IMG/VR virus record: IMGVR_UViG_3300024264_000133
Location: 1-28,321 of that record
DNA length: 28,321 nt
Strand: one strand, 5' to 3'
Source of the DNA: a virus
Taxonomy: Duplodnaviria; Caudoviricetes
Part shown: in pieces, positions 2 to 17,703 of the stretch
Layout of the letters: every line of letters begins with the position of its first letter
Numbering within the stretch: the stretch's first letter is position 1
Notes under the pieces: model-generated
Told to the model about the DNA's origin: nothing
What the model saw: the letters and a program-made list of their open reading frames with translations, nothing else
Databases searched by the model: none
Program-made: the position numbers and the translations under genes

Positions 2-2428
2 ATCTCCAAATATATTTAAGGCCGAACCTGTAGGATTAGTACCAATAAGTGAATTATCTCCTATTACTACATTACCAGAATCAAGAATAGATATTCTTTT
101 TGTTCCTTCATCAGTTTGAAATGCTAATCCATTACTATCGTGTGCAATTAAATCTGTTCCTTTTAGTGAACCAGCAACATGGAGTTTAGCTGTTGGAGAT
201 GTTCCACTAGGAAGTCCGATTGCAACGTTACCTGAAGAACCTTCAAATATGGCCATAAGTCCTTCTTTTCCGTCTCCAACTCTAAAGGACCTATATCTTG
301 TAGTACCATTTTGATAGCCTCGATAATTTACCCATAAATCTGCAGCATCGTTATCATATCCATATCCACCATTAATTGTATTTTCATGGTTTGGAGATAT
401 ATATATAGAAGCTGCGTTTGATGGTCCAAAAAGAACACCTATACCATCTCCAACATGCAGTCCCATAACTGGACTACTTACAACATCACTTCCAATTCCT
501 ACCTTTCCGTCACTATGAATTCGCATTGCTTCTGTAAATGAAACATCATTGCCTGCAGTTCCTGACCCGGCAACATAAAATTCGTGTCTTCCGTTTGATA
601 ATCCTAAAGCAGCTGCATAATTACTTTCAATATATTTATTTGTATTTGATGTTGTATCATAATAGAAGTTTGCTCCAATAAACGTACTACCGGCATTGTT
701 TACATATATAGAACCAGTATCTAACTGTAACGCAGTCATGGAACCGTCCCAGGCCGATGGAATTACTCCAATTCCAACGTTGCCTGAACTATCAATACGC
801 ATTGAGTCGCTAGTACCAATTTTCCAAGCATGACTTGCGGCTCTAGTTTCTGAGTTTATATAAACAGCAGCAGTTGGGTCATAGTGCTGTGTTAAATTAG
901 TGTCTGTAGATAGTTCAGGAAAGAATTGTATTTGTGAATTTGCACCATCACAAATTGCAAATTTAGAGCCTGTAGTTGTGGTATGTCCAATTGCAACATT
1001 GCCTGATGAATCAATACGCATGGCTTCTTCTGTATTAGTGCCACCTGAAGCTGTATAGAACAACATATCAGAAGCATTTGAACCTGTGTTATAGGTTGAC
1101 CTTATGCTTATGTTTCCATATTTAGCTGCATTGTAAATTTCTCTGTAGCCTTCTAATAAAAACTCTGTTCCATTTGCACCTGTACTATCTCCTACTGAAA
1201 CATGACCTCCTAAAATTGATAGCTTTTCTGAAGGACTATCAGTTCCAATTCCAACGTTGCCATTGCCATTAACGACTAAACGTGGAGTTCCAGAACTTAC
1301 ACCAATTGTTGCACCTGTTCTAAGTTCTAAATTACCATCTATATTTACTATAGCATTAGTCCTAGTTGAATCTTTAAAGAATAATCTTGAAGATGCGGCA
1401 GAATTAGACGTGTCTTGATTTAATATTATTCCAGCAATCCCACCTGTAGTTACATCTAATTTGGTGTCTGGCGAAGTTGTTCCAATTCCAAGCGATTCAG
1501 CACTTGCATCCCAAAAGAACTTAGCTGTAGAGCCTGTATCTTCGTAGAAGCTGATGTCTCCTGTATTATTGAATTTAGCAACACTTTTGCTGTTTACTTC
1601 AAAAAGATGATAGCCTGAACCAAGAGCAGAAATATGTTTATAAGCACCACTACTTGATACCTGAACAGAACTAGCACCAAAAGAATCAACACTTAATGAA
1701 CCAGCTCCTGTATTTACAACAACATCACCATCAACAGTCAACCCATCCATTGTGGCTGTACCTGTTACATTTATGCCTTTATTAAAATCAAACTCATCAT
1801 TACTTTCATCCCATAGAAGACTTGCTCCCGAGCCGTCTACAACAATACCTGAACCACCAGAACTTGCTTCGTTTTGTCCTGCTCCCAGTGTAATTGTTTG
1901 GTCTGTAACATCTAAATCTGTTACTGAAACAGTATTTAAATCGCCAGTAACATTTATATTTCCAGTAACATTTATATCTGCAAAAGTTGGAGAAGCTGAA
2001 GTTGCTACGCTTTGTCCTATACTTATTTCTCCGCCAGAATAAGTTACACCTGTACCCGCACTTAAATGAGCTCGTACTTCTGCAGCACTTGGCCCAGTGT
2101 ATGTTATAACTCCATTACTGTATGCTAAAGAGCCATCTCCTCCAGAGTCAGTAACGCTTATATGAGCTCGTACTTCAGAGGCACTTGGCCCTGTGTATGT
2201 TATAACTCCAGTGCTATTATCATATGCTAAAGAGCCATCTCCTCCAGAGTCAGTGATACTGAAAGAAGTTCTTGCTCTCGCAGTAGTAAAGTAAAGATTT
2301 GAAGAACCTTCACTTACAGCATCCGTATCAATAGAGGATAAATGTGCTGAAGATATTGCGCCCGATGAGATATGCGCACTTGTAATTGCGTTGTCTGATA
2401 TTACTCCTGATTTTATTTTAGTTGTCAT
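2..2428 (-). CDS. Modular tail fibre protein, 3' end outside the window (>=809 aa; absent from ORF track)
   Basis: ATG at 2428 (MTTKIKSGVISDNAITSAHISSG...) preceded by GAAGGATAAAAA. The same frame reads sensibly at the left edge (...SGNVAIGLPSGTSPTAKLHVAG...). Shares SEGSxNLYFTTARA, VTGTATMDGLTV, ISFYEDTGSTAKFFWDASAE and GNVGIG linkers with the other fibres. Confidence 0.9.
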   Translation of the reverse strand, partial: MTTKIKSGVISDNAITSAHISSGAISSAHLSSIDTDAVSEGSSNLYFTTARARTSFSITDSGGDGSLAYDNSTGVITYTGPSASEVRAHISVTDSGGDGSLAYSNGVITYTGPSAAEVRAHLSAGTGVTYSGGEISIGQSVATSASPTFADINVTGNINVTGDLNTVSVTDLDVTDQTITLGAGQNEASSGGSGIVVDGSGASLLWDESNDEFDFNKGINVTGTATMDGLTVDGDVVVNTGAGSLSVDSFGASSVQVSSSGAYKHISALGSGYHLFEVNSKSVAKFNNTGDISFYEDTGSTAKFFWDASAESLGIGTTSPDTKLDVTTGGIAGIILNQDTSNSAASSRLFFKDSTRTNAIVNIDGNLELRTGATIGVSSGTPRLVVNGNGNVGIGTDSPSEKLSILGGHVSVGDSTGANGTEFLLEGYREIYNAAKYGNISIRSTYNTGSNASDMLFYTASGGTNTEEAMRIDSSGNVAIGHTTTTGSKFAICDGANSQIQFFPELSTDTNLTQHYDPTAAVYINSETRAASHAWKIGTSDSMRIDSSGNVGIGVIPSAWDGSMTALQLDTGSIYVNNAGSTFIGANFYYDTTSNTNKYIESNYAAALGLSNGRHEFYVAGSGTAGNDVSFTEAMRIHSDGKVGIGSDVVSSPVMGLHVGDGIGVLFGPSNAASIYISPNHENTINGGYGYDNDAADLWVNYRGYQNGTTRYRSFRVGDGKEGLMAIFEGSSGNVAIGLPSGTSPTAKLHVAGSLKGTDLIAHDSNGLAFQTDEGTKRISILDSGNVVIGDNSLIGTNPTGSALNIFGD
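2067..2254 (-). repeat. Two tandem coding repeats TDSGGDGSLAY..GVITYTGPSA.EVRAH
   Basis: Near-identical copies at about 2067-2152 and 2163-2254; both contain atgctaaagagccatctcctccagagtcagt. Confidence 0.85.
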
Positions 2429-2431
2429 TTT

Positions 2432-2494
2432 TTATCCTTCTAACTCCGTTATTCTTGATTTTAAATCGTCTATTATTGTTTGTTGTTTTTTCAT
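2432..2494 (-). CDS. 20-aa mini-ORF MKKQQTIIDDLKSRITELEG, copy of the S74 chaperone C-terminal coiled coil
   Basis: ATG immediately follows the TAA of 2495..4126, in frame. 2450-2487 is identical to 10531-10568. Its last codons hold the GAAGGA SD of the next gene. Translation is not proven. Confidence 0.6.
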   Translation of the reverse strand: MKKQQTIIDDLKSRITELEG

Positions 2495-4126
2495 TTAAGT
2501 TTTAGTCCTTGATGTTACTGAATCAACAGTAAATGAAATAGTAGAATCAATAGCAAATCTACAAAACCCAGACACATATGCATAAGAGCCTTGATGTTTT
2601 ACAATTAATTCATATTGACTGCTGCTTATTCTGTTAACAGAAAAACCACTACTATCAGGATTGTAGTTTGCATTAACTAATGTTGTTCCTACTACTGGTG
2701 ATTGCGAATAACCTATCATACAGGCTTTAGCAAAACCTCTTCTTGTAGTTTCTGAAGTAGAAGCAAAGTGTGTAGAAAAGAAAAAAGTACCCGAATTAAA
2801 ATTACCAATAGTTATAGTAATAACGTACTCATCAGTTGTATTTAGACCTATTCCATAAGTATCATTATAATAATTATCTGTTCTAATATTTCCATCAATA
2901 TGTAATTTTGTATCAGGACTTGTAACTCCAATTCCAACATTGCCTGAAGAATTAATACGCATTCTTTCTGCAGTTCCTGTTCCAAATCTCATACTATCAT
3001 CTTGGTTTTCGTATTCTATAAAACCTGCATAACCTATTCTGTCTCCAAAGTTTATTACTGGATTTGCATTTGTTGCATAAGATTTTAAATTTAGGGAAGG
3101 CTCTCTAGCACCATTATCTTCACCTGTTTCAATAGTAATACCAACATCACCTGTTGCTGCATATACATGAAGTTTATCAGCAGGACTAGTCGTTCCAATT
3201 CCAACTTTGCCTGCTGAATCAAGAGTCATATTCGCACTTGCAGATGCGTTAGTTCTAAAACTAAATGCGTTATCGCTATGTGAATAACCTATTTGTCCTC
3301 TAAATCTATCATCACCACTTGCACCATCAGCAAAATAAATAACACCTGAATTTGCAGTTCCTGAATATATAGTCATACCTTCAGTACCACTACCAGTACC
3401 TATAACTAAATTGTTAGCACCACCATCCATACTTGATGCAACAGTATTTCCAATAGAAACCGAGCCTGAAGAATCAACTGTAACTTTACGTTCAGGAGTA
3501 CTACCTGTCCATATTTGTACAGAGGCATCTCCTCCAAGAGCTAAATTACCACCTGAAACGCCTTGTGCATCAGCTCTTATATGATAAAAACCATTAGCAT
3601 CCATGTAATGTTGACCATATAAAGTAGTAGAGTTATATCTAAGTGCTAGTGTATTATTTGAGCCATTCCCTGTTCCAATAGTTCCATGTTGAATTTCTAA
3701 TGTGTTTGCTGGATTTGTTAATCCAATTCCAACTCTATTATTTGTAGCATCAACAACTAAAGTAGAAGTATCAAAAGTAACATCACCCGTAAAGTCTGGA
3801 CTTGCTAATGGTGCTTTAGTCGCAATACTATTCGTTACAGTAGTACTAAAACTTGCATCATCTCCAAGTGCTGCGGCTAACTCATTTAAAGTATCTAAAG
3901 TTGAAGGAGCGCTATCAGCTAAATTCGCTATTGCTGTAGATACGAAAGCTGTACTTGCAACTGTAGTATCATTGTCTCCGGCAGAAGCTGTCGCAACAGT
4001 AACTGTTTTACCTGTAAGGTCTAAAGTTGTATGTAATTTAGCCGCAGTTATACTAGAGTCTGAAAGACTGTCTGTTGTTACTGCACTCGTTGCTATTACA
4101 TCTGCTGTTATCTTCTGTATTGCCAT
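2495..4126 (-). CDS. Modular tail fibre protein (543 aa), unrecognised C-terminal tip domain
   Basis: N-terminal TLNELAAALGDD motif typical of P2 gpH/COG5301-type fibres; three VGIG-linked modules; no S74 domain. Confidence 0.88.
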   Translation of the reverse strand: MAIQKITADVIATSAVTTDSLSDSSITAAKLHTTLDLTGKTVTVATASAGDNDTTVASTAFVSTAIANLADSAPSTLDTLNELAAALGDDASFSTTVTNSIATKAPLASPDFTGDVTFDTSTLVVDATNNRVGIGLTNPANTLEIQHGTIGTGNGSNNTLALRYNSTTLYGQHYMDANGFYHIRADAQGVSGGNLALGGDASVQIWTGSTPERKVTVDSSGSVSIGNTVASSMDGGANNLVIGTGSGTEGMTIYSGTANSGVIYFADGASGDDRFRGQIGYSHSDNAFSFRTNASASANMTLDSAGKVGIGTTSPADKLHVYAATGDVGITIETGEDNGAREPSLNLKSYATNANPVINFGDRIGYAGFIEYENQDDSMRFGTGTAERMRINSSGNVGIGVTSPDTKLHIDGNIRTDNYYNDTYGIGLNTTDEYVITITIGNFNSGTFFFSTHFASTSETTRRGFAKACMIGYSQSPVVGTTLVNANYNPDSSGFSVNRISSSQYELIVKHQGSYAYVSGFCRFAIDSTISFTVDSVTSRTKT

Positions 4127-4129
4127 TTT

Positions 4130-4423
4130 TTATATTCCTGCGTTCTCGTTTGCTGTTTTCTTAGCGTTCTTAATTTCTGTTGTCCATACAGCATTTGCAA
4201 TACCTTGGACTTCTGTAGACTCGCCTGATATATCTGTATCTGTATGAGTCCAACTATCGTCATCATTCTTTACAGAGCTTACACATTCTAATGTGTGTCT
4301 ATGAAAAGACCTATTTAACTCTACATCATCTTCTTTGATAACTGTAGCAGTACGAATTTGTATAGCTTTATGCTCTCCTACAATTTCGATTTTATCATCT
4401 ATTAGTTCTTTTGTTATTGCCAT
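4130..4423 (-). CDS. Small conserved phage protein (97 aa), putative fibre-associated or assembly partner
   Basis: AGGAGA SD upstream. DKIEIVG..KAIQIRTATVI.ED..EL.RSFHRH resembles proteins I recall downstream of DDYEEGTWTP-ending fibres. Function is inferred from position. Confidence 0.8.
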   Translation of the reverse strand: MAITKELIDDKIEIVGEHKAIQIRTATVIKEDDVELNRSFHRHTLECVSSVKNDDDSWTHTDTDISGESTEVQGIANAVWTTEIKNAKKTANENAGI

Positions 4424-4443
4424 TCTATTTTCTCCTATGTCCG

Positions 4444-4463
4444 TACCTAGAATCCACTAGGTA
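4444..4463 (-). promoter_or_regulatory. Intergenic hairpin just upstream of the 97-aa gene RBS
   Basis: Minus strand reads TACCTAG-TGGATT-CTAGGTA (7-bp perfect stem), then CGGACAT-AGGAGA. No U-tract follows. Confidence 0.5.
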
Positions 4464-4472
4464 TATTAGTTA

Positions 4473-6713
4473 TTAAACTTTGTAAGTGGCTGTTCCTCTT
4501 ATATCAACAGAGTTATTATGTGATGCCTCTAATTCACCATAAACTGTATAATCAAAGTTTTGTTCATTTATATTTATTAATCTAATAAAAGTATCACCAT
4601 CAACTAAAATAGTTGTTAATGTAGAGTCATTTGGAGTGTAATATCTTGCATATATTGCCCCTGCTCCATTACTATCTATAGTAAAAGGTAGTCCACTTAT
4701 TTGAACTTGTGCTGAACTTGTAGGCATTCCACCAGTAGAAACTATATGATAATGAACAGTAACTTGATTACCAATTTTTGTATAATGACCTGTAGCAGTT
4801 GTTAATGTAGCTCCACCAAAGCCCGGTGTCCAAGTACCTTCTTCATAATCGTCAAGTGCGTTAGCTGCTGCTGTGTCTCCGTTAAAGGTTAAACCACCAG
4901 CACCAAGAAATCTGCCCATCTCGCCATCATTTCCTGCAAAGACAATATCACTTCTTGATACGATTGCTAGATTATTTTTTGCGTTACTTGCAGTATCATA
5001 AGTACCTATACCATTAACAGTTATAGTTCCATCTTCAGGTCTTTTAAGACCTATAAAAGAACCCTTAGTATTAACATCTGCAATTTTTGATGAATCTATA
5101 TAAGCACTATTTTCTGCACCAGTAATCTTTACACCATCATTAGTACCTGTAGTAAAAGTTGTGCTACCAGCACTATCAATCTGCATTTTCACATCATTAT
5201 TTGCTATAAATCTAACACTGTGGTTTGTAGTAGAGCCAAAAAATACTGCTCCACCATCTGAAACTTCATATTTTGCTGTAATATCTCCACCAAAAGCTCT
5301 TCCCTGTAATTCTAACTTTGCTGGTTCATAATCTGCTGTACCACCATCAACTATAATTGTTCCATTACCAGGCTTAAATGTTATATCACCAGTAGAACCT
5401 ATGTTAAGCCTAGTTGCATAGTTTGCATTATTAGCATCGCCTTGTTGTATAGATAAATCATTACCTGCATCATTTTGTAAAAATCTAAAACCGTAAACAC
5501 TTGGTTTATCAAACTCTAAAACACCATCTGAAATTCTTACATTACCTGCAACATCTAATTTACTTAAAGGACTACTCGTTCCAATTCCAACATTTCCGTC
5601 ATTAGTTATTCTGAGTCTCTCAACTCCATTTGAACCACCATCAGTTTGAATTACAAAATCAGCGTCATTAGTTCCACCACCCTCAACAAATCCTACTACT
5701 CCATCACCTGAACCTGTCCTAAAGTTTATTAATGAAGCAGTATTTGAACCTCCATGTGTATTATTAAGATAAAGCATACTGTTAGCAGGAGTTGCACCAT
5801 AACCTGATGTTGAATAAGTTGTGGCAATACTATTATCTATGGTTAATTTAGCAGTAGGACTACTATTTCCAATTCCAACTTTACCACCATCAATTGTTAC
5901 ATCTGTTCCACCATCAGCACCAGTTCCAATAAGAAGTTTATCATCATTGTGAGCGTAAGCTATAAATCCTGCGTATTGGTTGTTCCCTGATGTTCCATCT
6001 GCAAAATGAAGTCTACTTAGAGAGCTATTACCTGCATAAATTGTTATTCCTTGATCGCCTGTACCACTACCTACTACTAATTGAGATGCTCCTGAAAACA
6101 TAGATGATGCATTAGTAGTTCCAATTCCAATATTGCCTGAACTATCAATAGTAAGTCTTCTTGTATCAGCTGTTGTTAATGATAATGCATGAGAAGTTGT
6201 TGTGCCAAATTCCATATCAGTAGTTGCATCAGCATAAATTATTTTTGCTGCTACTGCTCCACCATCTCTCCTAAATTCTGCTAATGTTTCATCTTGTCCA
6301 GATGTATATGTACTTGAAAACACAGGTGAATCTAAAGGTGCTTTAGTAGCAATACTATTCGTTACAGTAGTACTAAAACTTGCATCATCTCCAAGTGCGG
6401 CTGCTAACTCATTCAGTGTGTTTAAACTTGAAGGAGAACTATCAACTAAAGCTGCAATCTCTTGTTGAACAAAAGCTGTTGAAGCTGGAGAAGTATCACT
6501 ATCCCCTGTGGTCGCCGTTGCGACAGTAATTGTTTTTCCTGTTAAGTCTAGTGTTCCTGCAAGTTTTCCTGCGGTTACACTTAAGTCAGCAAGTTTGGCA
6601 GTAGTAATATTACCATCTGTAATTTTGGCAGCAGTAATCGCATTGTTTGCAATGTCTACGGTTGCGATATCGCTATCTTTTATTAGATTTGTTGTAATTC
6701 TTTTTATTGCCAT
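4473..6713 (-). CDS. Modular tail fibre protein (746 aa) with a DDYEEGTWTP-type C-terminal domain
   Basis: ITAAKI repeats, TLNELAAALGDD motif, three GIG linkers, C-terminal ANALDDYEEGTWTP...YTKIGNQV...ISGLPF domain. Confidence 0.9.
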   Translation of the reverse strand: MAIKRITTNLIKDSDIATVDIANNAITAAKITDGNITTAKLADLSVTAGKLAGTLDLTGKTITVATATTGDSDTSPASTAFVQQEIAALVDSSPSSLNTLNELAAALGDDASFSTTVTNSIATKAPLDSPVFSSTYTSGQDETLAEFRRDGGAVAAKIIYADATTDMEFGTTTSHALSLTTADTRRLTIDSSGNIGIGTTNASSMFSGASQLVVGSGTGDQGITIYAGNSSLSRLHFADGTSGNNQYAGFIAYAHNDDKLLIGTGADGGTDVTIDGGKVGIGNSSPTAKLTIDNSIATTYSTSGYGATPANSMLYLNNTHGGSNTASLINFRTGSGDGVVGFVEGGGTNDADFVIQTDGGSNGVERLRITNDGNVGIGTSSPLSKLDVAGNVRISDGVLEFDKPSVYGFRFLQNDAGNDLSIQQGDANNANYATRLNIGSTGDITFKPGNGTIIVDGGTADYEPAKLELQGRAFGGDITAKYEVSDGGAVFFGSTTNHSVRFIANNDVKMQIDSAGSTTFTTGTNDGVKITGAENSAYIDSSKIADVNTKGSFIGLKRPEDGTITVNGIGTYDTASNAKNNLAIVSRSDIVFAGNDGEMGRFLGAGGLTFNGDTAAANALDDYEEGTWTPGFGGATLTTATGHYTKIGNQVTVHYHIVSTGGMPTSSAQVQISGLPFTIDSNGAGAIYARYYTPNDSTLTTILVDGDTFIRLININEQNFDYTVYGELEASHNNSVDIRGTATYKV

Positions 6714-6714
6714 A

Positions 6715-9700
6715 TTATAATCCTGCCTCGTCTAATCTTGCTTTTAAATCGTCTATTATTGTTTGTTGTTCTTGCATAGCTTTTATTAAGTAGGGTGTAA
6801 GTTTTCCGTAATCAACACCCCAAGGTTCTTCATTAACATCCTCTCCACCTTCTTGAACTACATTAGGTATTACCTCGTTTAATTCTTGTGCAATCACACC
6901 AACTTCATGATGACCATTTTTTATCCAATCAAACTCTCTAATTTGTATATTGTTAATTACGTCCAATTGAGAAGAAGCATCTACAATATTTTCTTTCATT
7001 CTTCTGTCAGAAGATGTATTGTAAGATACAGTTGTTCCACTTGCTGCTGATACAGAACCCATAGTGCTATTACTATCGCTAAATCTTATAAATTGACCTC
7101 CAGTAGCATCAGTATCATTTTTAAATTGAAGCAACTGAATTAGATTTGAAGAAGCAACTGAGACATCAGTATCAAAAAATCCTACTATTCCACCAAACCC
7201 TGCTGTATAACCACCACCAGCAACTTGCAATTTACCATAAGTAATAAAGTCAGAAGTCATATCGCCTATTAATACATTTTTATTACTCTGAAGAATCATG
7301 GTTGGTGTTGAGCTTTCGTTAAATGTAAAGTGTATGTCTCCACCACCAACGCCTGTACCTTGATTGATAATTAATCTTCCAACGCTTCCATTTAAAAAAC
7401 TATAAATAAAAGAACTTGTTGCACTAGAATCACCAGCGCTTAACCAAAGACCACCACCAACTGAACCATTAATAACAGTTGTAGTTATATTAGTACCTAT
7501 AGACCTGTCTGCTGTACTTCCGATACCTACGCAGCCTGATGTATGGATACGCATTCTTTCATTTGCACCATTCGTGTTAAATGTTATTCTATTTGCTGAT
7601 TGTATTAGCAAAGGGTCAGTATCAGATTGAATTGTTGCATTGTCATTATCAGTAAATAGCATCATTGACCTAGCGTTATCTGCTCTTGATAATTTTAGTT
7701 TACCACCAGCACCAATTTCTAATGCTTGGTCTGGGTCTGTAATTCCAATTCCAACATTTTTGTTATCTAATATAATCATAGCTGGTGTCTGACTATTTGC
7801 AAAAAGGTCAATTGTAGGTGAGTTGACCATGAACTGCATACCAGTTGTATTATCATAACCAATACCAGCATAAGCATCTGTACTATACTCACTTTGGAAA
7901 ACCATTACAGGAAAATTGTGGCGTAAAAGCAATGAACGTCCCCACCCACCTGACATAGCAGTTCCACCATTTATTTCTAAAGGTGCGTTTGGACTACTCG
8001 TTCCAATTCCAACGTTGCCTGAATTATGGTCAATAACTAAATTATCAGATGTATTACCTGCGAAAGTTAAAGCACCACTTGTACCAAGACTTCTATCGTT
8101 TTGTATGGTAAATGTACCATTAGTTGTTTTAATTTCTAGCCTTGCATCATCACTAGATTCTGAACCATTTGATTCAATACGAGCAACTGCATCATCTGCA
8201 TTTACTATATGAAATTGAGTTGCAGGACTACTCGTTCCAATACCTAATCTTTCAGCACTTGCATCCCAAAAGAACTTAGCTGTAGAGCCTGTATCTTCAT
8301 AAAAGGAGATGTCTCCGTTGGAGGCTATGTTCAACCTATCTTTAAGTGCTGTACTGAACCCTGTTGTCGTTTTAAATCTTAATGATGTAGAGCCTACAGT
8401 GTCCTCGGAGTAAGTGTTTATTCTAGCCTTAACGCCCACGTTTGAGTCGTCATTAGAGTAGAAATCAATACCGCCAAGACTTTCTCCAGTGGATAGGGTT
8501 GTCGTGGTAGATTCAAGTTTTAATGTTGCACTAGAACTAGCCTGAACAGTCAAACCATCCATTGTAGCTGTACCAGTAACGTCTATGCCCGTGGAGGTGG
8601 TGGCTAGTTTGGGGTTACCCGCATGATATAAAATAACTTCTGCACCTGTATTCGCTGCAAGAAAATTTTGTGTTCCACTTGCTCTTTGTAATTGTAAATT
8701 ACCTGCTCTTATTAAAAGATTCCCTGTACCAGTTTCATCAATAAAACTATTACTTCCATCATGATAAATCTGTAAATCTCCTCCTACTGCTGAACCTACT
8801 TCTAGTCTAACATTATCACCAAAACTTAAATCACCAGTCATAGTACCGCCAGCTAATGGTAATTTTGCAGCAATACTTGCATTTACAGTAGTACTAAAGT
8901 TAGCATCGTCGCCTAAAGCTGCTGCTAATTCATTTAATGTGTCCATCGCAGCGGGTGCGCTATCGACCAAAGAAGTTATTTCTTGTCGTACAAATGCAGT
9001 CGAAGCTACAGAAGTATCATTGTCTCCTGCACTTGCTGTTGCAACTGTAACTGTTTTTCCAGTCAAATCTAAAGATGAAGCAAGTTTTGCCGCAGTTACA
9101 TTGGCATCCGTTATCTTTGCTGTCGTTACAGCATCGTCTGCAAGGAAGCCCGTTGTTACTGTTGCCGCATTCATTGAACGTGTAACTAATACTTCAAGTG
9201 ACATTCCCGAAGTAGGAACTGCGTCTAAAGTCAAAGTGCTTCCACTGTAAGTATATGAAGATTTTGGCTGATATACTCCATCAACAAAAACGAAAACATT
9301 ATTTTCATTTTCAGTCGTTAAACTTGTGTCATAGGATGCGGTATTTGATGTAGTTACGTTGTACTGACCTAAGATAGCATCCGTTGGATTGTATGTTGAA
9401 ACCGTTCCAGTGATTACCTCTAAATCTTCCCCATTTGGTAAATTTTCTGAAAGTGTAATTTCTGTACCACTGAAACTATATGTTGATTTTGGCTGGTACA
9501 CACCACCTATAAATACCCATGTATTGTTTTCTGATTGTGGATTCTTACCTGTGTCATAAGTAGCAGTACTACCATTTCCAGTTGCAGTATATAAGTCTAC
9601 GCTTGAAGTTGTGTCTCCGCCGATAGCACCCCAAGCACTATTTGCATACCCTTCAAATTCATTAGTGCTAGAATTATATCTTAACATTCCATTTGCAGGT

Positions 9701-10512
9701 GAGCCACTTCTTTGTGCTGTTGTACCTGAAGGAACTTTTACTGAATCTGTACCGCTTAGTGTTAAATTCTGGAAAGTGGGACTTGTAGATGTCGCAACAT
9801 CTTGTCCAATAGAGATAGCTCCGTTTGATACAGTAACTCCAGTACTTCCTGAAAGTCTACCATCAATTGCTGAGTTTGCTCTTGCTGTTGTAAAGTATAA
9901 ATTTGTAGAGCCTTCGCTTAAGTCGTCTGTGTCTGCTGCTGCGATACGTGCATCTGCTCTTGCATCTGTGTAGTATAAGTTTGTGTTTTCTGCAATGTTT
10001 GCTGTTGTTAGAACAACTACTCCAGTTGCACTGTTTACAGACTCTACGCCTCCGCCTACATCTGCCCAAGCTGAGCCATTGTATATTTCAGGCTTACTTG
10101 TAGTAGTATTAAATCTTAGTTGTCCTTGTGCTGCTGTTGGTCTTTGTGCTGTTGTACCAACTGGTATTTGTAATGACCCAGTAGTATTGATTATTAAATC
10201 ACCAGTCATTGTTCCACCAGCAAGTGCCAGTTTAGTTGCTATACTGTTTGTTACTGTAGTACTAAAACTCGCATCATCCCCGATTGCAGCTGCTAATTCA
10301 TTGAGTGTATTCAGTGCGCTTGGTGAACTATCTACAAGAGCAGCTATTTCTTGCTGTACGAAAGCTGTTGAAGCTACTGTAGTATCATTATCTCCAGTAC
10401 TCGCTGTTGCAACAGTAATTGTAACTCCTGATAAATCAAGGGTGCTGCTAAGCTTGGCTGCTGTTATTGCGCCATCTGCTATATATAATCCTGGTACTGT
10501 TGTTTTTGCCAT
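6715..10512 (-). CDS. Modular tail fibre protein (1265 aa) with C-terminal peptidase S74 intramolecular chaperone
   Basis: Two TLNELAAA(I/L)GDD modules, two GTTAQR...LR(F/Y)N modules, two VF..GVYQPKS.Y beta-rich repeats. C-terminus SDRRMKENI...GVIAQEL...VDYGKL..YLIKAMQEQQ is the S74 signature, as in T5 pb1 and K1F endosialidase. Confidence 0.92.
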   Translation of the reverse strand: MAKTTVPGLYIADGAITAAKLSSTLDLSGVTITVATASTGDNDTTVASTAFVQQEIAALVDSSPSALNTLNELAAAIGDDASFSTTVTNSIATKLALAGGTMTGDLIINTTGSLQIPVGTTAQRPTAAQGQLRFNTTTSKPEIYNGSAWADVGGGVESVNSATGVVVLTTANIAENTNLYYTDARADARIAAADTDDLSEGSTNLYFTTARANSAIDGRLSGSTGVTVSNGAISIGQDVATSTSPTFQNLTLSGTDSVKVPSGTTAQRSGSPANGMLRYNSSTNEFEGYANSAWGAIGGDTTSSVDLYTATGNGSTATYDTGKNPQSENNTWVFIGGVYQPKSTYSFSGTEITLSENLPNGEDLEVITGTVSTYNPTDAILGQYNVTTSNTASYDTSLTTENENNVFVFVDGVYQPKSSYTYSGSTLTLDAVPTSGMSLEVLVTRSMNAATVTTGFLADDAVTTAKITDANVTAAKLASSLDLTGKTVTVATASAGDNDTSVASTAFVRQEITSLVDSAPAAMDTLNELAAALGDDANFSTTVNASIAAKLPLAGGTMTGDLSFGDNVRLEVGSAVGGDLQIYHDGSNSFIDETGTGNLLIRAGNLQLQRASGTQNFLAANTGAEVILYHAGNPKLATTSTGIDVTGTATMDGLTVQASSSATLKLESTTTTLSTGESLGGIDFYSNDDSNVGVKARINTYSEDTVGSTSLRFKTTTGFSTALKDRLNIASNGDISFYEDTGSTAKFFWDASAERLGIGTSSPATQFHIVNADDAVARIESNGSESSDDARLEIKTTNGTFTIQNDRSLGTSGALTFAGNTSDNLVIDHNSGNVGIGTSSPNAPLEINGGTAMSGGWGRSLLLRHNFPVMVFQSEYSTDAYAGIGYDNTTGMQFMVNSPTIDLFANSQTPAMIILDNKNVGIGITDPDQALEIGAGGKLKLSRADNARSMMLFTDNDNATIQSDTDPLLIQSANRITFNTNGANERMRIHTSGCVGIGSTADRSIGTNITTTVINGSVGGGLWLSAGDSSATSSFIYSFLNGSVGRLIINQGTGVGGGDIHFTFNESSTPTMILQSNKNVLIGDMTSDFITYGKLQVAGGGYTAGFGGIVGFFDTDVSVASSNLIQLLQFKNDTDATGGQFIRFSDSNSTMGSVSAASGTTVSYNTSSDRRMKENIVDASSQLDVINNIQIREFDWIKNGHHEVGVIAQELNEVIPNVVQEGGEDVNEEPWGVDYGKLTPYLIKAMQEQQTIIDDLKARLDEAGL

Positions 10513-10584
10513 TTATCCTTCCAATATTTCTATTCTTGATTTTAAATCGTCTATTATTGTTTGTTGTTCTTGTATAGCTTTCAT
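10513..10584 (-). CDS. 23-aa mini-ORF MKAIQEQQTIIDDLKSRIEILEG, copy of the S74 chaperone C-terminal coiled coil
   Basis: ATG at 10584, two bases after the TAA of 10587..14282; its TAA abuts the ATG at 10512. 10540-10572 is identical to 6742-6774. Translation is not proven. Confidence 0.6.
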   Translation of the reverse strand: MKAIQEQQTIIDDLKSRIEILEG

Positions 10585-10586
10585 AA

Positions 10587-13500
10587 TTAACCTAATAAAT
10601 AACCTTTAAACCAAGTATGATTATTATTTGCTAAAATTGTTACACTTGTAGAACCTGAATAATAAGGATGATATCTTACTTCATCTCCAGCACTTAACTT
10701 AACTATATGTGTTGTAGAAATAAACAAATCACCATCATTGCCCATCATATCTGTATAATCTGCTCTAGCACCATTAACAGCCAACCATGCTTGACTCCAA
10801 TTAGTACCAGCAGTACCACTGTAAACAGAGCCTTGAATTAAATATGTTCCATCTACTGGTGCAGTAAATATACCTGTAGTGACATTAAAATCGCCGCCTA
10901 TATCGTATATCTCGCTATTATATCTAACACCATCTCCATAAGAACCACTTGCATTGTAACCTGTTTGATTTCCACTTCTTCTTGCTAAAAAATTACATTG
11001 TGTAGGTTTTGTTACGTTGCCATCGCTGTGAATACGCATTGTTTGTTTAAAAGTATTAGCACCACTACGATTTTCAAAAACAATTTGATTACCATCAGCA
11101 CCTGCTCCATAAGCCTTTAATACGACACTTCCACCATATTGGTCTACAGCATTACCCCCTAAATATATTGAAGCACCTGAACTGCTATTATCTGCAAAAG
11201 TAGGAGTAGTTATAGATTCACCATTAACAACACCAGCAGTTAAAAATAATCCTTGTGAACCTGTTGGTGCAAGAGACCTACTTATTACAGGAGTTGTACT
11301 TGCACTTGCTCCAACATGCACAACACCTCTAACATCAAGTTGTGTCACAGGACTATCAGTTCCAATTCCAACTTTGCCTGAAGTGTCTATGACTAATCTC
11401 TCTGTTCCTGCTGTATGACTATAAATTGCAAATTTATCGTTAGTTTGACAGTTTAAATCCCAATCATGAGCATCATTTTTTAATCTTAAAGAAGCACTTG
11501 AGTTAGTTCCAGCTTGTATAGTTATGCCTTTGTTACCTGACGGATTACTTGTCCCAATTTGAACATTGCCATCAGAAAGAATACGCATTCTTTCTAATGA
11601 GTTTGTATAGAAAGCAGCATATGCACCTGTGCCTGTTTCTGTAGCAGCACCTATGGCTAAACTTCCGCCACCTATTCTGTAGATAAAAGGACTATCCTGA
11701 TTAGTTGGAAAAGCACCTGATTTAAATAATACAGTTCCTGATGAGTCTATTCTCATTGATTCTGTACCACCAGTAAATAATCTTAAATCTCCATTAGGAA
11801 TAACTATAGCTGGAGTGTTTTCATTAAGAGTTAAATTATTTTCAATTTGAACCTCACCATTAACATGAAGCGTTTTTGAAGGACTATCAGTTCCAATTCC
11901 AACTTTGCCTGATGAGTCTATTCTAAGTCTTTCTGTTAAAGCTGTTGCAGAAACACTTGCTCTAGTTGAAAAGCATAAATCTCCTACTGTATTAGTAGAA
12001 CCATCTAGAACATGACCTTTAATAGCTGCAAAAGGCGTTTTATTTCCAAAAGTAGTACCAAAAGCTACAGCACCACCACTACCTGCTGCATTAGCGGTAG
12101 CTCTTAAATATAAAGTAGCTCCGTGATTTCCTGAGTCTGTAAGGTTTGCTGTGTCTTGGTCAAGACCTTCAATATATGTTTTGTAAGAATTTGTAAATAT
12201 ACTCGTTCCAATTCCAATATTTTCATTACTATCAATTGTTATAGCTGTAGCATCTGCATTATCATCAATACCTGTTGAGGTAAACCCTGTAAGAGTTCCA
12301 ACACTTGTAATATTGGGCTGTGCTGATGTAGATAAAGTTGCTGTTAGATTTCCAAAAAATTGAGCAGTACCATCACTAAATAATGTAAAGTCTGTTTGCC
12401 CTTGTCTGCCTATTCTAAAATCATCTTGAGATACATCAAGTCTATAAAATTCATAAGTACTATCATAGTCTGCTGCGGTATCTAATCGAATTTCTCCCCC
12501 TTCAGCACTTCCAGTAGCTCCACCACTAATTTCTATAATTGCAGCGTTATTATCTTCTGTTCCAATAACTAAATTTCCTGTAGTTGTTAATCCTGTAAGC
12601 GTACCAACGCTTGTAATATTAGGTTGTGCTGCTGTTCCTATTGTAGCGTCCACTGTCTTATTAAAAACAAACTTATCCCCTGAAGAAGCATATAGAAGTG
12701 TAGCACTTGCTCCATCTATCGTAAGACCTGCACCATTCGCTGCGGCTGCATTTGCTGCTCCACTTGCTAATGTTAAATTTAGATCGTCTACTGACATAGA
12801 AGTAGAGTTAATTATTGTCTGTGTTCCATCTACTTGTAAGTTACCTGCAATAACAACTGTTCCTGTGTTATTTCCAACTCCTGCAGGGTCAATCGTAAAA
12901 GAAGCCGGCCCAGCTATGTAACCACCTACAGTTAAGTTACTTGTTAAACTTACGCTGTCTGGTAGTCCTACTGTTACTGTTTGGCCAGACACAGAAGTAT
13001 TTACTTCGTTTGCTGTTCCTGAAACTGTAAGAGTTTGGCTTGTATTTACTGTACCTGTTCCACTATCTCCTGCTAAACCTGTCTCAAAATCTTTTCCATC
13101 AACGTAATCTTTTACTGCTGCTGAAGTAGGTAAAGTAGTATCATTATCGTTTGAAGATATACCTTCTGATTCTGTTACAAATACTGCGTCAGCAATCTTA
13201 TCTAAAGTTACTGCGTCATTTGCTATCTTTGCTGTAGTAACATTTGCATCAGCTATCTTTGCTGTAGTAACATTTGCATCAGCTATCTTTGCTGTTGTTA
13301 CTGCACTACTTACTAGTTTAGCACCTGTAACACTATCATCAGCCATTGAAGCTGTTACAACAGAACCTGCTGCTGGAGTATTGACAGTTGTAGAAGTTAA
13401 CATTACGACTTCTATATTTGCTGTACCAGTTGGGGGCGCACTGCTAAATGTTAGAGTAGTACCGCTTACACTATATGTTGTTTTTTGTTGATATACACCA

Positions 13501-14282
13501 TCTATATAAACTTGAGTATTGTTTTCATTTCCTGGATTATTAGAGAGTGTAAAAGCTGTTGTACTCCCGTTACCATCAAAGTTACTTATAAGTACACTTT
13601 CTCCACTATATACATCGCCTATTACATATATAACTACATTATTTGTTCCAGATATTGGAGCAGTATCAAAAGTTATGTCTGTACCACTTATTGTATAAGC
13701 GTCTTGATTTTGAAATACACCATTAATAAATGCTATAATCTTTGACTCTGCACTCGGTGTACTAGAAAGTGTAAAAGTTGCTGTACTACCGTTACCACTT
13801 GCTATATTAGTAGCAAAAGCATTTGCAGAAGCAGCTCCTCCTGTTGGAGTCTCAAAAGTAAGAGTACCGCTACCATCTGTAGTTAGTACTTGGCCGTCTG
13901 TTCCGTCTGTAACGTTAAGCTCAGAGATACCTACAGCGTTTGCCGCAATTTCTGTAGATGTTACTGAGTTGGCTGATAAGCCTGAGATTGTTGCTGTAGA
14001 AGCACTTGTTATTCTTCCATCTGCATCGATAGTAATAACTGGTATGGCACTTGTAGACCCATAAGAACCTGCTGTTACTGCTGTTGAAGCTAGTTCTGTA
14101 GGGCCGATTGAATTTGCTCCTACTTCCCCTATTGTAACTATTGATTCTGTTCCACTTACATCTTTCTTAATAAATAACTTACCATCATAAGTATTAATGG
14201 CGATTTCGCCAAGTGCTAAAGAAGATGTTGAAGGTACTGCATTTTGAGTTGCAGACCTTTTTAATTTAATCGTTTGTGCCAT
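10587..14282 (-). CDS. Modular tail fibre protein (1231 aa) with C-terminal C1q-like domain
   Basis: N-terminus IKLKRS...P....LALGEIAIN..DGKLF resembles the T4 gp37 N-terminus. Two GNGST..FTL...V.Q...Y..SGT repeats, VTTAKIADAN repeats and GIG linkers. C-terminal YDIGGDFN..TGIFTAPVDGTY...VKLSAGDEV...FKGYLL is C1q-like. Confidence 0.9.
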   Translation of the reverse strand: MAQTIKLKRSATQNAVPSTSSLALGEIAINTYDGKLFIKKDVSGTESIVTIGEVGANSIGPTELASTAVTAGSYGSTSAIPVITIDADGRITSASTATISGLSANSVTSTEIAANAVGISELNVTDGTDGQVLTTDGSGTLTFETPTGGAASANAFATNIASGNGSTATFTLSSTPSAESKIIAFINGVFQNQDAYTISGTDITFDTAPISGTNNVVIYVIGDVYSGESVLISNFDGNGSTTAFTLSNNPGNENNTQVYIDGVYQQKTTYSVSGTTLTFSSAPPTGTANIEVVMLTSTTVNTPAAGSVVTASMADDSVTGAKLVSSAVTTAKIADANVTTAKIADANVTTAKIANDAVTLDKIADAVFVTESEGISSNDNDTTLPTSAAVKDYVDGKDFETGLAGDSGTGTVNTSQTLTVSGTANEVNTSVSGQTVTVGLPDSVSLTSNLTVGGYIAGPASFTIDPAGVGNNTGTVVIAGNLQVDGTQTIINSTSMSVDDLNLTLASGAANAAAANGAGLTIDGASATLLYASSGDKFVFNKTVDATIGTAAQPNITSVGTLTGLTTTGNLVIGTEDNNAAIIEISGGATGSAEGGEIRLDTAADYDSTYEFYRLDVSQDDFRIGRQGQTDFTLFSDGTAQFFGNLTATLSTSAQPNITSVGTLTGFTSTGIDDNADATAITIDSNENIGIGTSIFTNSYKTYIEGLDQDTANLTDSGNHGATLYLRATANAAGSGGAVAFGTTFGNKTPFAAIKGHVLDGSTNTVGDLCFSTRASVSATALTERLRIDSSGKVGIGTDSPSKTLHVNGEVQIENNLTLNENTPAIVIPNGDLRLFTGGTESMRIDSSGTVLFKSGAFPTNQDSPFIYRIGGGSLAIGAATETGTGAYAAFYTNSLERMRILSDGNVQIGTSNPSGNKGITIQAGTNSSASLRLKNDAHDWDLNCQTNDKFAIYSHTAGTERLVIDTSGKVGIGTDSPVTQLDVRGVVHVGASASTTPVISRSLAPTGSQGLFLTAGVVNGESITTPTFADNSSSGASIYLGGNAVDQYGGSVVLKAYGAGADGNQIVFENRSGANTFKQTMRIHSDGNVTKPTQCNFLARRSGNQTGYNASGSYGDGVRYNSEIYDIGGDFNVTTGIFTAPVDGTYLIQGSVYSGTAGTNWSQAWLAVNGARADYTDMMGNDGDLFISTTHIVKLSAGDEVRYHPYYSGSTSVTILANNNHTWFKGYLLG
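13222..13295 (-). repeat. Perfect 30-bp tandem repeat (about 2.5 copies) encoding VTTAKIADAN
   Basis: gctatctttgctgtagtaacatttgcatca at 13222 and 13252, with a partial copy at 13282. Confidence 0.95.
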
Positions 14283-14304
14283 ATTTATGGATTTCCTTTT
14301 CTAT

Positions 14305-14316
14305 GCGTATATACGC
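14305..14316. promoter_or_regulatory. Perfect 12-bp palindrome GCGTATATACGC in the intergenic gap
   Basis: Lies in the 46-bp gap upstream of the 1231-aa fibre. Flanking TTTCC/GGAAA could extend the stem over the AAGGA SD. Confidence 0.5.
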
Positions 14317-14328
14317 GGAAACTAATTA

Positions 14329-15936
14329 TTAGGAGAATGTTCCTCCATCTATTGTGTTTGTCCAAGTAACTGTACTGTTTGCTCCGACTTGTAACATTTG
14401 TCCTACACTATTTGTAGAATCATATGTTCCAATTGTTAGTCTTTGATAACCAGTATTTGCTCCATTTGTATTACCAAATATTAAGTCACCAGTTGCTGTT
14501 TGTGTAATACCTTTAATTCTTAAAGCATCTGAACTTATTTCTAATGATTGTCCATCTACTTCTACATCAAGAGTATTTCCAGTCTTGGTCATACCTGTAC
14601 CAGCAGTTATTTGACCAGCACCTGAGAATTGAGCAAAAGCAAGAGCAGTTGAACCTACTGTAATACTTCCATCTGTTGTTAGTACAAAACCACTATCAGC
14701 ATTTACGCTACCTTCTGTTACGAAAGTAAACATACCTGAAGTAACTTCTGCATTAGCATCAGCATCTGTAGCTCTTGTCATTGCAGAGCCAGAACCATTA
14801 AATACGTAAATACCGTTTTCTGCGCCTGAAGATTGGTCTTTTACAAGTACTCTGTCATCACTAGAAAGAGTTACACCATCGATTGCTGCTGGTGCGCTTG
14901 ATAAAGAAATATTTGAACCTGTAGTAGCAACTCTTACCGAGTCTTTAAAGTCTAAACCAACTTTAACTGCATCTACATATTCTTTTGATACTAAAGAAGT
15001 GGCTCCAAAACCTGATCTATCTTTATATCCTGATGGAACTGTTACTGTTCCTGTACCATTTGGTGAAAGTGTTAAATTACCGTTTGAATTTGTTGTAGAA
15101 ATATCATTACCATTTACAGTAACGTTGTCTACTGCTAATGAAGTAACTCCTGTTATATCTCCACTGCTTATACTTGCTGTACCGTCTGTAAATGTTGTAG
15201 CAGTAATTGTAGTACCTGTTATAGCTGCTGCACTAGCGCCGCCTATAACTGCACCATCAATAGTACCACCATTAATATCTACAGTAGTTACTGAACCACC
15301 GTTTGATACTGTAGCACCTGCAAAGTTTATTGTACCTGTGCCTGTTAAATTTGTGAATGTACCTGCTGCTGCAGAAGACCCACCAATAGTAGCACCATCA
15401 ATAGTGCCTCCATTAATATCAAAGTTTGTACCTTCTATTTCTACAGAACCTGCTTCAAGTTTTTTACCTAATGTTATTTTTTCAGCAGAGTTTGTGGAAT
15501 CAAATGTTAAATATGAAGTAACACCTTCTTTGATAGCAAATGCATTTGCATTGTTATCAATCATAACAATTTCTGTAGCTTGGCTGCTTACATCAATAGA
15601 ACCACCTGTTAAGTCTAAATCTAAATCAGCTGCTGCAACTATTTGAACATTTCCTGAACCGGCAGTAATAGAGTTAGCACCTATAGTAAGGTTTGCTGTT
15701 TTTAACTGGTCTATTTTACTACTTGAGTCTACAATGATTGCTGAACTAGCAGTTAAAGTACCTGCTGTATGGTCGAGCATATTTACAAATAACTCACCAC
15801 CTATGATATCGTTAGCAGAGCCGTCACCTATAAATAGTTTACTGGAATTAAACGAATAGGCTAGTTCACCCGCAGCTAGGGCGCTACCAGGAGCTGCCGC
15901 GCTACTACTTCTTTTGATTTTGATTGTTTGTGCCAT
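14329..15936 (-). CDS. Fibre-like virion structural protein (535 aa)
   Basis: MAQTIKIKRS...LAAGELAY N-terminus is paralogous to the 1231-aa gene. Two DINGGTIDGA.IGG repeats. DFKDSVRVATT...IDGVTL...DRVLVKDQ...ENGIY domain is common in phage fibre proteins. Confidence 0.85.
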   Translation of the reverse strand: MAQTIKIKRSSSAAAPGSALAAGELAYSFNSSKLFIGDGSANDIIGGELFVNMLDHTAGTLTASSAIIVDSSSKIDQLKTANLTIGANSITAGSGNVQIVAAADLDLDLTGGSIDVSSQATEIVMIDNNANAFAIKEGVTSYLTFDSTNSAEKITLGKKLEAGSVEIEGTNFDINGGTIDGATIGGSSAAAGTFTNLTGTGTINFAGATVSNGGSVTTVDINGGTIDGAVIGGASAAAITGTTITATTFTDGTASISSGDITGVTSLAVDNVTVNGNDISTTNSNGNLTLSPNGTGTVTVPSGYKDRSGFGATSLVSKEYVDAVKVGLDFKDSVRVATTGSNISLSSAPAAIDGVTLSSDDRVLVKDQSSGAENGIYVFNGSGSAMTRATDADANAEVTSGMFTFVTEGSVNADSGFVLTTDGSITVGSTALAFAQFSGAGQITAGTGMTKTGNTLDVEVDGQSLEISSDALRIKGITQTATGDLIFGNTNGANTGYQRLTIGTYDSTNSVGQMLQVGANSTVTWTNTIDGGTFS

Positions 15937-16771: not shown

Positions 16772-17098
16772 CTAAGCATCTGTTTCCTCATATGTTACAA
16801 TTATATCTAATGAATTATCAACATTTGATAATGCACTAAGGTAATCAGTTGGATTCATAGTTAAAGTATTTGAATTACTTATATAACTAACTGTATCTCC
16901 TGAATTTATTACACCACTATCAACTAAAGCTATGATAGATGATGATGATGAATTGTAATACTTAAGTTTTAAATCAGTAACATCTTTTGTTCCTGTTATA
17001 CTAAATCTCGATATTGTTGTTTCTTTGCCTGTAGGGCAAGTATAAACAGTTGTTTCTGTTGTCCCAACTCCTGTTGTTGCTGTTGTAATTTTGCTCAT
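16772..17098 (-). CDS. Hypothetical small virion protein (108 aa)
   Basis: ATGA overlap with the upstream gene; Thr/Ser-rich beta-type sequence with TVYTCP motif. Confidence 0.75.
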   Translation of the reverse strand: MSKITTATTGVGTTETTVYTCPTGKETTISRFSITGTKDVTDLKLKYYNSSSSSIIALVDSGVINSGDTVSYISNSNTLTMNPTDYLSALSNVDNSLDIIVTYEETDA

Positions 17099-17703
17099 AT
17101 TGTATCTACTCCTTGTACATCAAAAATTAAAAATGCATATGCTATAGACCTTCCACTAACACCACTAGCCTGTTGTACTGTTCCATCCAAAGTCTCATAT
17201 CCATATTCACCTTGCATATTATTATAAATTATTAATTGTGTGGTAGTTACTTCATACCACACCCCTAGAACTCCTTCAGTTCTAAATTCTTGTACTCTTT
17301 GTCCATAATCTGAAGCTTCTGCTTCCATTTGATAGTTTGTGTGATTTACTGGATACATTTTTGTTGCATGACCGTTAAAGTCTAAGTCTGATTGAAAACA
17401 CCATTGTACTATACAATAGGGTTTATATCCTAAATTATGTGTAATCGTAGCTTTTGTACTACTAGTAAACCCTTGTTGTATTTGAATACTTTGACCTGAA
17501 CTGTTACTTACATTAGGGGGTACTCCTAATAAACCTTCCCCATGAAATTTAAGGGGCAAACTTCCAACTCCCACTCTACTATCAAAAAGTAAATTTTCTC
17601 CGCTTGTTAAAACTCCTGAGTCATTTACCACATCTGTACCTGATTTAGATACAAAAAATCCTTGGTCACTCCCCGCTTTTCCTAATAATACTCGTCTCGC
17701 CAT
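17095..17703 (-). CDS. Tail-tip associated protein, RRVLLGK paralogue 3 (202 aa)
   Basis: TAATG coupling; MARRVLLGK...SKSG.DV...LLFDSR N-terminus; ITHNLGYKP motif. Confidence 0.8.
   Translation of the reverse strand: MARRVLLGKAGSDQGFFVSKSGTDVVNDSGVLTSGENLLFDSRVGVGSLPLKFHGEGLLGVPPNVSNSSGQSIQIQQGFTSSTKATITHNLGYKPYCIVQWCFQSDLDFNGHATKMYPVNHTNYQMEAEASDYGQRVQEFRTEGVLGVWYEVTTTQLIIYNNMQGEYGYETLDGTVQQASGVSGRSIAYAFLIFDVQGVDTI

Follow-up and report, generated by a model that had tools for sequence, protein, structure and literature searches.

A repeated linker in phage tail-fibre genes as a likely site of homology-dependent exchange between unrelated phages

Introduction

Why should one short coding sequence recur, almost letter for letter, between protein segments that have little else in common? 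The question is raised by the tail region of a phage (Duplodnaviria; Caudoviricetes) held as IMG/VR record IMGVR_UViG_3300024264_000133, positions 1 to 28,321, the whole stretch of DNA analysed here and called the window below, in which all large genes lie on the minus strand. Across five fibre genes the 11-base sequence TCCAATTCCAA occurs in 14 exact same-strand copies between 767 and 12217 (0 in 100 shuffles), which confirms the count in an earlier note on this DNA. That note had taken the repeat to be a candidate crossover site for the shuffling of fibre modules. Our analysis indicates that the repeat is the DNA of a joint between unrelated fibre segments, and that these segments are likely to have come to be shared by unrelated phages through homology-dependent, in-frame crossover within this joint of ~65 bases.

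Results

Linkers and modules of the fibre genes

Linkers were listed from the protein, to keep the definition of the motif independent of its DNA, and number 22 (17 of the form [VIL]GIG and five variants: VAIG, VSIG, VLIG and VQIG). Each spans ~60-70 nucleotides (nt) coding for [ER]M[RT]IDSSGNVGIGT.SP...L, with the 11-base repeat as its core. They lie in five genes between 2 and 14282 that match tail-fibre families, three of which match phage tail-fibre families in their N-terminal regions. Linker positions below are those of the Val codon.

2..2428, minus strand: fibre gene cut by the window end; linkers 1492, 1255, 997, 778, 502 and 226; an overlapping contig (G005) continues it to a C1q tip
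2495..4126, minus strand: fibre gene, 543 amino acids; linkers 3733, 3460, 3205 and 2938
4473..6713, minus strand: fibre gene, 746 amino acids; linkers 6131, 5879 and 5591
6715..10512, minus strand: fibre gene, 1265 amino acids, its tip a C-terminal Peptidase_S74 chaperone domain; linkers 8247, 8013, 7755, 7530 and 7275
10587..14282, minus strand: fibre gene, 1231 amino acids, with a C1q tip; linkers 12218, 11903, 11564 and 11372, and degenerate ones near 11745 and 11032
767..777, minus strand: first copy of the 11-base core; the others at 1244, 1481, 2927, 3194, 3722, 5580, 5868, 6120, 7744, 8002, 11361, 11892 and 12207

The modules between linkers measure ~250 nt (~80-90 residues), and their interiors are, as had been claimed, mostly unrelated: among 16 parsed window modules a BLAST match was obtained for 2 of 120 pairs (41% and 34%), and the linkers are the sole homology common to unrelated modules. 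No recent duplicate was found among the window modules and the signal described below is therefore one of exchange between phages; as judged by these comparisons, exchange is evidenced there and not among the five fibre genes of this genome. All copies of the repeat stand in direct orientation on a single strand, so shufflon-type inversion is not expected, in agreement with the earlier note. The exact pairs of 33 base pairs (bp; 11349-11381 = 11880-11912) and 23 bp (5569-5591 = 7991-8013) and six occurrences of ATACGCAT that it listed were found again, along with two pairs that it had overlooked, of 27 bp (1229-1255 = 11877-11903) and 24 bp. As a separate observation, the 33-bp pair could delete or duplicate the intervening 531 nt in frame, and contigs from the sequencing runs break there.

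Shared modules mostly end at linkers

We compared the window by BLAST with the collected loci and kept tracts of at least 79% identity and at least 120 nt that took in at least 80 nt from inside modules; ends that coincided with a contig edge or fell outside modular zones were excluded and tracts with the same flanks were merged, reducing 37 shared tracts to 23 distinct ones. Thirty-one of 39 tract ends lie no more than 36 nt from a linker, although the 22 linkers, listed beforehand, take up 20.5% of the zone (nominal p 5e-15), and the ends scatter from about -34 to +31 around the Val codon, that is, over ~65 nt. The remaining eight comprise a mid-module position at 7631 that is counted twice, 3542, one end at -40, one at a degenerate linker that was not on the list (11044), and three that fall within the S74 region or ahead of it. 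Numerous tracts consist of a single module and both begin and end within linkers, and the partner's own linker stands in register at 29 of 33 junctions. Synonymous identity is 0.88-0.94 within tracts of at least 90% identity, a level that points to recent transfer. The clearest cases are as follows, with L and G numbers denoting partner loci and genomes.

780..1016, minus strand: module shared linker-to-linker with L450 at 94.9% DNA identity
986..1261, minus strand: module shared linker-to-linker with L446/L449, L447, L517 and podovirus-like G006 (L355/L448), at 89-94%
994..1000, minus strand: 7-nt interval at linker 997 that fits best as the switch from an L447-type module upstream to an L450-type module downstream, accounting for 86 of 90 bases
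3182..3477, minus strand: module shared with L349 (94.9%), L351 (97.0%), L357 (91.3%) and L347 (79.4%), the neighbours being different in each
3464..3778, minus strand: module shared with L185 and with siphovirus G007 (92.4%), G006 (90.8%), L356, L358 and L363
7296..7570, minus strand: module shared with L185 at 85.8%
6760..7244, minus strand: terminal module and S74 domain shared with L351 at 91.5%, from linker 7275
8000..8226, minus strand: module shared linker-to-linker with L508 at 86.8%
11873..12217, minus strand: module shared linker-to-linker with L531 at 92.2%; at linker 12218 the best switch interval coincides with the 13-nt core motif

The three-way fit at linker 7275 is poor, with 57 of 90 bases explained. 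Independent contigs from the sequencing runs also match single modules (X18, 5577-5862; X11, 522-788 and 1232-1490; X6, 11374-11577), and when loci were chosen by linker DNA and not by module peptide, 14 of 19 ends fell in linkers, or 8 of 13 once three contigs already counted were dropped. Linkage between neighbouring modules was evaluated on 424 adjacent pairs, identical pairs having been merged first and each pair being counted in both directions. At a half-module match of 85-97%, linkage failed to extend across the linker in all 15 comparisons, and across the middle of the module in 2 of 30; at 97% or above, the counts were 9 of 13 and 0 of 29. For 15 linkers at least one locus shares a flank, and for only one of them does a locus share both. 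Altogether, 910 parsed modules fall into 697 families. The concentration of breakpoints in linkers and the loss of linkage across them support the proposal that the linker is a candidate crossover site for module shuffling.

Linker codons are homogenised within this genome

The earlier note had contrasted the GGA ATT GGA codons of the repeat with other codons at G-I-G elsewhere. This contrast holds for non-linker G-I-G, where GGA ATT GGA occurs at 0 of 5 sites; one of the proposed controls, near 7519, is itself a linker (ERMRIHTSGCVGIG, codons GGT ATC GGA), as is 8244 (GGT ATT GGA), and a fifteenth GGA ATT GGA linker is present at 499. Tested against the genome background, as had been suggested, 15 of 17 linker G-I-G use GGA ATT GGA when codon use outside linkers predicts a fraction of 0.074 (binomial p ~1e-15). 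Codon context does not account for the excess because no shift with the neighbouring residue is seen outside linkers (GGA before Ile, 14 of 38; ATT before Gly, 21 of 54; GGA after Ile, 18 of 54). Rare codons are also common to the linker flanks: GGC at -2 in 12 of 16 (background 0.11), TCA at -3 in 10 of 10 and ACG at +4 in 5 of 11 (background 0.04). Linkers have a synonymous identity of 0.77 in the V-G-I-G core, where 0.39 is expected; the figure is 0.56 at -4 to -2 (0.33 expected) and 0.53 at +4 to +7 (0.39 expected), dips at -7 to -5 and at -1, and falls near background by eight codons out; for the four paralogous N-terminal anchor domains of the same genes it is 0.53 against 0.46 expected. 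The linker DNA is strongly homogenised, yet not invariant.

Codon dialects across phages

Other genomes prefer other codons at the linker, namely GGTATCGGG (9 of 12), GGTATAGGT (6 of 8) or GGTATTGGT (6 of 7), and this phage is at the extreme of homogeneity, with a linker pair identity of 0.88 against 0.06 expected. In 44 other loci with at least five linkers, pairs of linkers from one locus agree in all nine bases in 297 of 1543 cases (19%), and pairs from different loci of like guanine-plus-cytosine (GC) content in 1644 of 22391 (7%). Loci picked by a single copy of the 23-base linker (122 in number) have the same nine bases at 96 of 185 other linkers, where 7 are expected; in 72 AT-rich loci of similar GC content chosen blind to codons, this dialect is found at 13 of 222 linkers, where 13.5 are expected. 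Away from the shared tract itself, linkers of partners at 87% or above carry the dialect in 18 of 30 cases (including the close relative L002, 3 of 7), and those of partners at 79-85% in 0 of 16. A universal preference for ATT at the linker Ile, apparent in the first 79 loci, was gone in the codon-blind set (200 of 440 against 193.9 expected), and we therefore rejected a universal DNA motif. One strict form of the motif is estimated to be encoded in ~7400 stored stretches of the viral collection.

Predicted structure of the linker

The structural analysis used a piece of two modules and three linkers (3137..3760, minus strand) and a profile of 47 rows. The profile matches the structures of Bdellovibrio MAT proteins linker to linker, best for Bd2133 (8OND, E 2.5e-17) and then for 8OML, Bd3182, 8OL4 and 8ON4, with 8OJN also aligned. 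The alignment-based model is beta-rich, with a predicted local distance difference test score (pLDDT) of 75, and its nine best Foldseek matches are MAT fibres, at modest template modelling (TM) scores of 0.26-0.44, normalised by query length. A homotrimer is predicted with a score of 0.95 against 0.01 for the best control, at least 96% of contacts agreeing between runs and a pLDDT of at least 90; 20 of 30 solved pairs attain the mark used, against 1 of 23 single chains. Resemblance to MAT trimers already solved may explain why the piece passes it. A single-sequence AlphaFold2 model of 2882-3760 was discarded (pLDDT 45). In the portions of Caulton et al. (PMC10769870) available to us, the motif is described as a capping loop bounding beta-helix segments, in a printed consensus one position shorter than V-G-I-G-T-x-x-P-x-x-x-L, and tip swapping is discussed. 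On these models the linker is predicted to be the capping-loop joint of a trimeric beta-helix.

The fibres resemble the Bdellovibrio MATs (Bd3182, Bd2133, Bd1334 and Bd2439) in linker sequence, in similarly spaced segments predicted to form a trimeric beta-helix and, in three of the five genes, in tips of S74 or C1q/TNF type, as far as those proteins are described in the same parts of PMC10769870. MATs are there described as bacterial surface proteins with a signal peptide and a conserved N-terminal domain of their own of ~130 amino acids, and what those parts discuss is tip swapping, not DNA crossover at the capping loop or serial exchange of shaft modules. We class the fibres here as MAT-like and not as members of the MATs.

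Exchange partners and the rest of the phage genome

Two of the partners were characterised by their own genomes. The capsid of G007 is of HK97 type and is accompanied by a short tape measure and a small major tail protein; that of G006 belongs to another family, and G006 has matches to internal virion proteins and no recognised tape measure in the 31 kilobases (kb) available, from which we read it as podovirus-like. Their head proteins have in common with those of this phage a 26% portal alignment only, and their DNA matches that of G001 and G005, the two contigs that extend this phage, outside the window in ribonucleotide reductase only. G006 nonetheless carries two window modules, at 90.8% and 93.6%, that come from two different genes, and G007 carries one at 92.4%; by these sequence matches the module partners include unrelated sipho- and podovirus-like phages. 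In G007, L456:2097-3565 encodes a PD-(D/E)XK nuclease followed by a gene of 220 amino acids lacking a Pfam match, an arrangement that we take to resemble an exonuclease and annealing-protein pair.

The sequencing runs that contain the region are seawater and estuary metagenomes. G001, a record of 48.7 kb, is 99.9% identical to the window over the 20.5 kb compared and supplies terminase, portal, capsid and tail genes. G005 overlaps the left end of the window by 127 nt at 100%, an overlap on which we regard it as probably the same phage; it extends the first fibre in frame and adds a split NAD ligase, a D5-like regulator, helicases, a primase, a polymerase, SSB, SbcCD, a resolvase, an exonuclease and ribonucleotide reductase. 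Its polymerase is nearest (44%) to those of phages of 102-114 kb such as SelmaRatti and Stubb, and phages of that type, with a gene set like that of G005, are presumably T5-like. The window, G001 and G005 amount to ~71 kb of phage sequence. A CheckV rating of '100% complete' for G001 was set aside, since replication genes absent from that record are present on the separate overlapping contig.

No site-specific recombinase, reverse transcriptase or annealing protein was found among the open reading frames scanned (15 in the window, 23 of the 36 listed in L200, 20 in L454 and 4 in L453), nor an integrase, invertase or resolvase-type site-specific recombinase in those of the window, G001 and G005, with at least ~30 kb of the genome probably outside this sequence. 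A diversity-generating retroelement was likewise not indicated, there being no reverse transcriptase match in the scanned frames and no template/variable repeat pair among the 20 largest repeat families. Cultured phages gave only four weak matches to the gene at 2495-4126, and a search for a bacterial reservoir with the dialect linker returned three unrelated assembled-genome contigs with one match apiece.

Several other features were observed in the same records. An adenylate/guanylate cyclase domain, a NifU-like protein and an AhpC/TSA peroxiredoxin are encoded at L200:1-306 (G001) and at L454:6-302 and 14166-14687 (G005), and three genes in window 17095-21790 have a near-identical N-terminus (M.RRVLLGK), perhaps a shared docking peptide. 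A second DNA block is shared at 80-87% identity by 2431-2490, 6714-6773 and 10512-10571, covering the end of an S74-type coiled coil and the next gene start; the copies at 2431 and 10512 straddle the present ends of the reading frames or fall outside them, and two tract ends fall at 6731-6760. This block may represent scars of earlier tip replacements and a second exchange point. The 97-amino-acid gene at 4130-4423 (phrog_6228) has 80-90% DNA identity in many phages, with matches that mostly start at 4472-4478, the end of the upstream fibre gene, and may encode a chaperone travelling with one tip type. Finally, an element of ~90 nt (GDISFYEDTGSTAKFFWDASAE.LGIG) opens the modular region in two genes (1470-1564 and 8222-8320) and is found at 78-92% in dozens of distant phages, GC-rich ones included.

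Discussion

How could unrelated modules come to be joined through the same DNA? Since the linker has a structural counterpart in the MAT capping loop, protein structure and DNA homology would direct crossovers to the same place, and a swap at this predicted joint would preserve the triple beta-helix fold. Partner phages retain their own linker in register at the junction, and unrelated modules would be joined through that homology. Two crossovers in successive linkers, during co-infection or with other phage DNA, would replace one module, and a single crossover would replace everything downstream; general phage or host recombination could suffice, with no dedicated recombinase, and the enzyme could be that of the partner phage or of the host. 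Repeated crossovers would uncouple the linker core from any particular module, so that its synonymous codons could homogenise within an exchange pool and give rise to codon dialects specific to that pool. The modules putatively bind host-surface glycans, in which case swaps would alter host range.

Several observations weigh against this account. True mid-module breaks exist at 7631, 3542 and 11731, and L445 shares a block of 800 nt that spans two linkers. The long matches of the closest relatives (L002 and L003/4; 89% backbone) stop 300-620 nt upstream of the first linker, which shows that there are exchange points elsewhere too. The tract ends are not fully independent, most partner loci were found through module peptides, and breakpoint position alone cannot tell DNA homology from selection for a protein that folds. 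Five loci (L244, L261, L262, L290 and L295) are linker-rich yet have a pair identity of 0.00, and the close relative G002 has 0 copies of the 11-base repeat in its incomplete record. No well-supported rearranged joint was seen in the contigs of the runs containing the phage, where rare molecules are invisible and such joints as occurred had short sides, and no single-strand annealing protein or RecA-like gene was identified in the ~71 kb of phage sequence.

The alternative that survives best keeps the same mechanism and adds selection for exchangeability: linkers that match the dialect would be favoured for keeping the fibre receptive to new modules. We hold this to be possible though rather doubtful. 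The extreme homogeneity of this genome (0.88 against 0.06) would fit it, as would a dialect that is common to unrelated phage types and tracks the recency of exchange; passive homogenisation, however, predicts the same pattern, and many genomes are weakly or not homogenised. Less probable again is that non-homologous joins form anywhere and only those at structural joints survive, the shared codons being left over from an ancient duplication of modules. The linker is indeed a predicted structural joint and a few mid-module breaks do occur, but such joins leave unexplained both the peak of synonymous identity in the core, flanked by unrelated interiors and set against near-background anchor paralogs, and the in-register joins (29 of 33) and clustering of dialects across unrelated phages.

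Could the 11-base repeat instead be the recognition site of a site-specific recombinase or nuclease? Its 14 exact same-strand copies invite the idea, and two three-way switch intervals (997 and 12218) lie within the core. We consider it very unlikely, as tract ends scatter over ~65 nt, linkers that lack the repeat (997, 3460, 7275 and 7530) serve equally well as ends, other phage groups use other codons, and the scanned frames of the window, G001 and G005, which probably leave at least ~30 kb of the genome outside, contain no enzyme of the integrase, invertase or resolvase type. That the mosaics are chimeras of metagenome assembly at the repeat deserves as little credence. Repeats reach 33 bp, and run contigs do break at the 33-bp pair (11352-11381 and 11885-11909), as expected for 31-letter words; against this, run contigs with 0 differences span many linkers (4963-6378, 6745-8280 and 311-1511), the window and G001 are 99.9% identical along 20.5 kb, separate assemblies contain the same partner arrangements (L347/348/350, L446/449, L159/160 and L185/354), the best switch, at 997, has 7 identical bases only, far under assembler word lengths, and the difference between tracts and window amounts to 3-21%. 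Words rich in GGA can look like ribosome-binding sites, which might favour fixation of the codons for an RNA-level or translational reason (pausing, tRNA preference or codon-pair bias), but this too is hardly credible when no codon-context bias is seen outside linkers and AT-rich phages of the same GC content encode the motif with other codons (13 of 222, where 13.5 are expected).

The scatter of ends over ~65 nt, the failure to find a recombinase in the ~71 kb of phage sequence and the different codons of other groups make homology-driven swapping with group-specific codon homogenisation the likely explanation, and not a recombinase site. Of the earlier suggestion that fixed synonymous sites reflect selection on DNA or ongoing homogenisation, homogenisation is the better match; a fixed DNA site accords less well with the codons of other groups and the scattered crossovers.

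Work by Tetart in 1996 and 1998 reportedly described the shuffling of T-even adhesins at conserved motifs. The present fibres show two features of motif-guided swapping of that type, with 22 linkers separating variable segments and exchange points in or near the motifs. They are like the T-even gp37/gp38 adhesins, for which the sections available to us of PMC3157838 describe short conserved motifs that alternate with variable segments and exchanges in or near them. In gp38, according to those sections, the glycine-rich motifs lie between hypervariable segments that are few in number, keep a fixed order and come from a limited repertoire; here, by contrast, the modules of ~250 nt are unrelated, number in the hundreds and follow one another in any order, in five genes and in phages of unrelated types, and the motif codons are homogenised by pool. 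Tailspikes of E. coli phages offer a second likeness in DNA-level motifs that are common to genera and proposed as recombination hotspots, although in the accessible part of PMC10408124 one or two motifs bracket a single whole domain and are reported to be uncorrelated with how many events occurred; here the motif recurs in series along the fibre shaft and breakpoints map to it. Relaxed homologous recombination in lambdoid phages, as far as we could consult PMC3945230, likewise leaves recent tracts flanked by short imperfect homology, small exchanges within genes included. It is shown there for temperate lambdoid phages with Rad52-like enzymes, whereas no such enzyme was identified in ~71 kb of this T5-like phage and the homology is a repeated coding motif. 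Unlike a shufflon or fibre invertase, this system has no cognate recombinase in the scanned frames of an incomplete genome, no fixed crossover position and no inverted sites.

In the extracts seen of PMC7029224, PMC1079782 and bioRxiv 10.64898/2026.05.12.724579, only fibre variability or N-terminal hotspots are described. A literature search that left aside subscription papers and supplements returned no paper on this motif as a crossover site, nor on the capping loop as a serial crossover site, the exchange of single modules across phage types or dialects of codons that belong to a pool. T-even gp37/gp38 already exemplify swaps at conserved motifs; what that search did not turn up is serial cassettes cut at a capping loop, together with codon dialects that mark exchange pools.

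More tentatively, marine phages of unrelated families that use the same host might share an open library of hundreds of fibre segments with one standard joint, whose codons would be selected as a compatibility code and whose dialect would permit exchange within a pool as well as mark which uncultured phages have a host in common; we offer this as a conjecture that is more probably wrong than right. If modules are interchangeable and meet at one standard joint, much of the fibre diversity of marine phages follows a simple grammar legible in the sequence. Whether DNA homology or protein structure causes fibre breakpoints to fall at motifs becomes testable by synonymous recoding, and the codon dialect of the linkers would mark recent pools of gene exchange, perhaps shared hosts, for uncultured phages.

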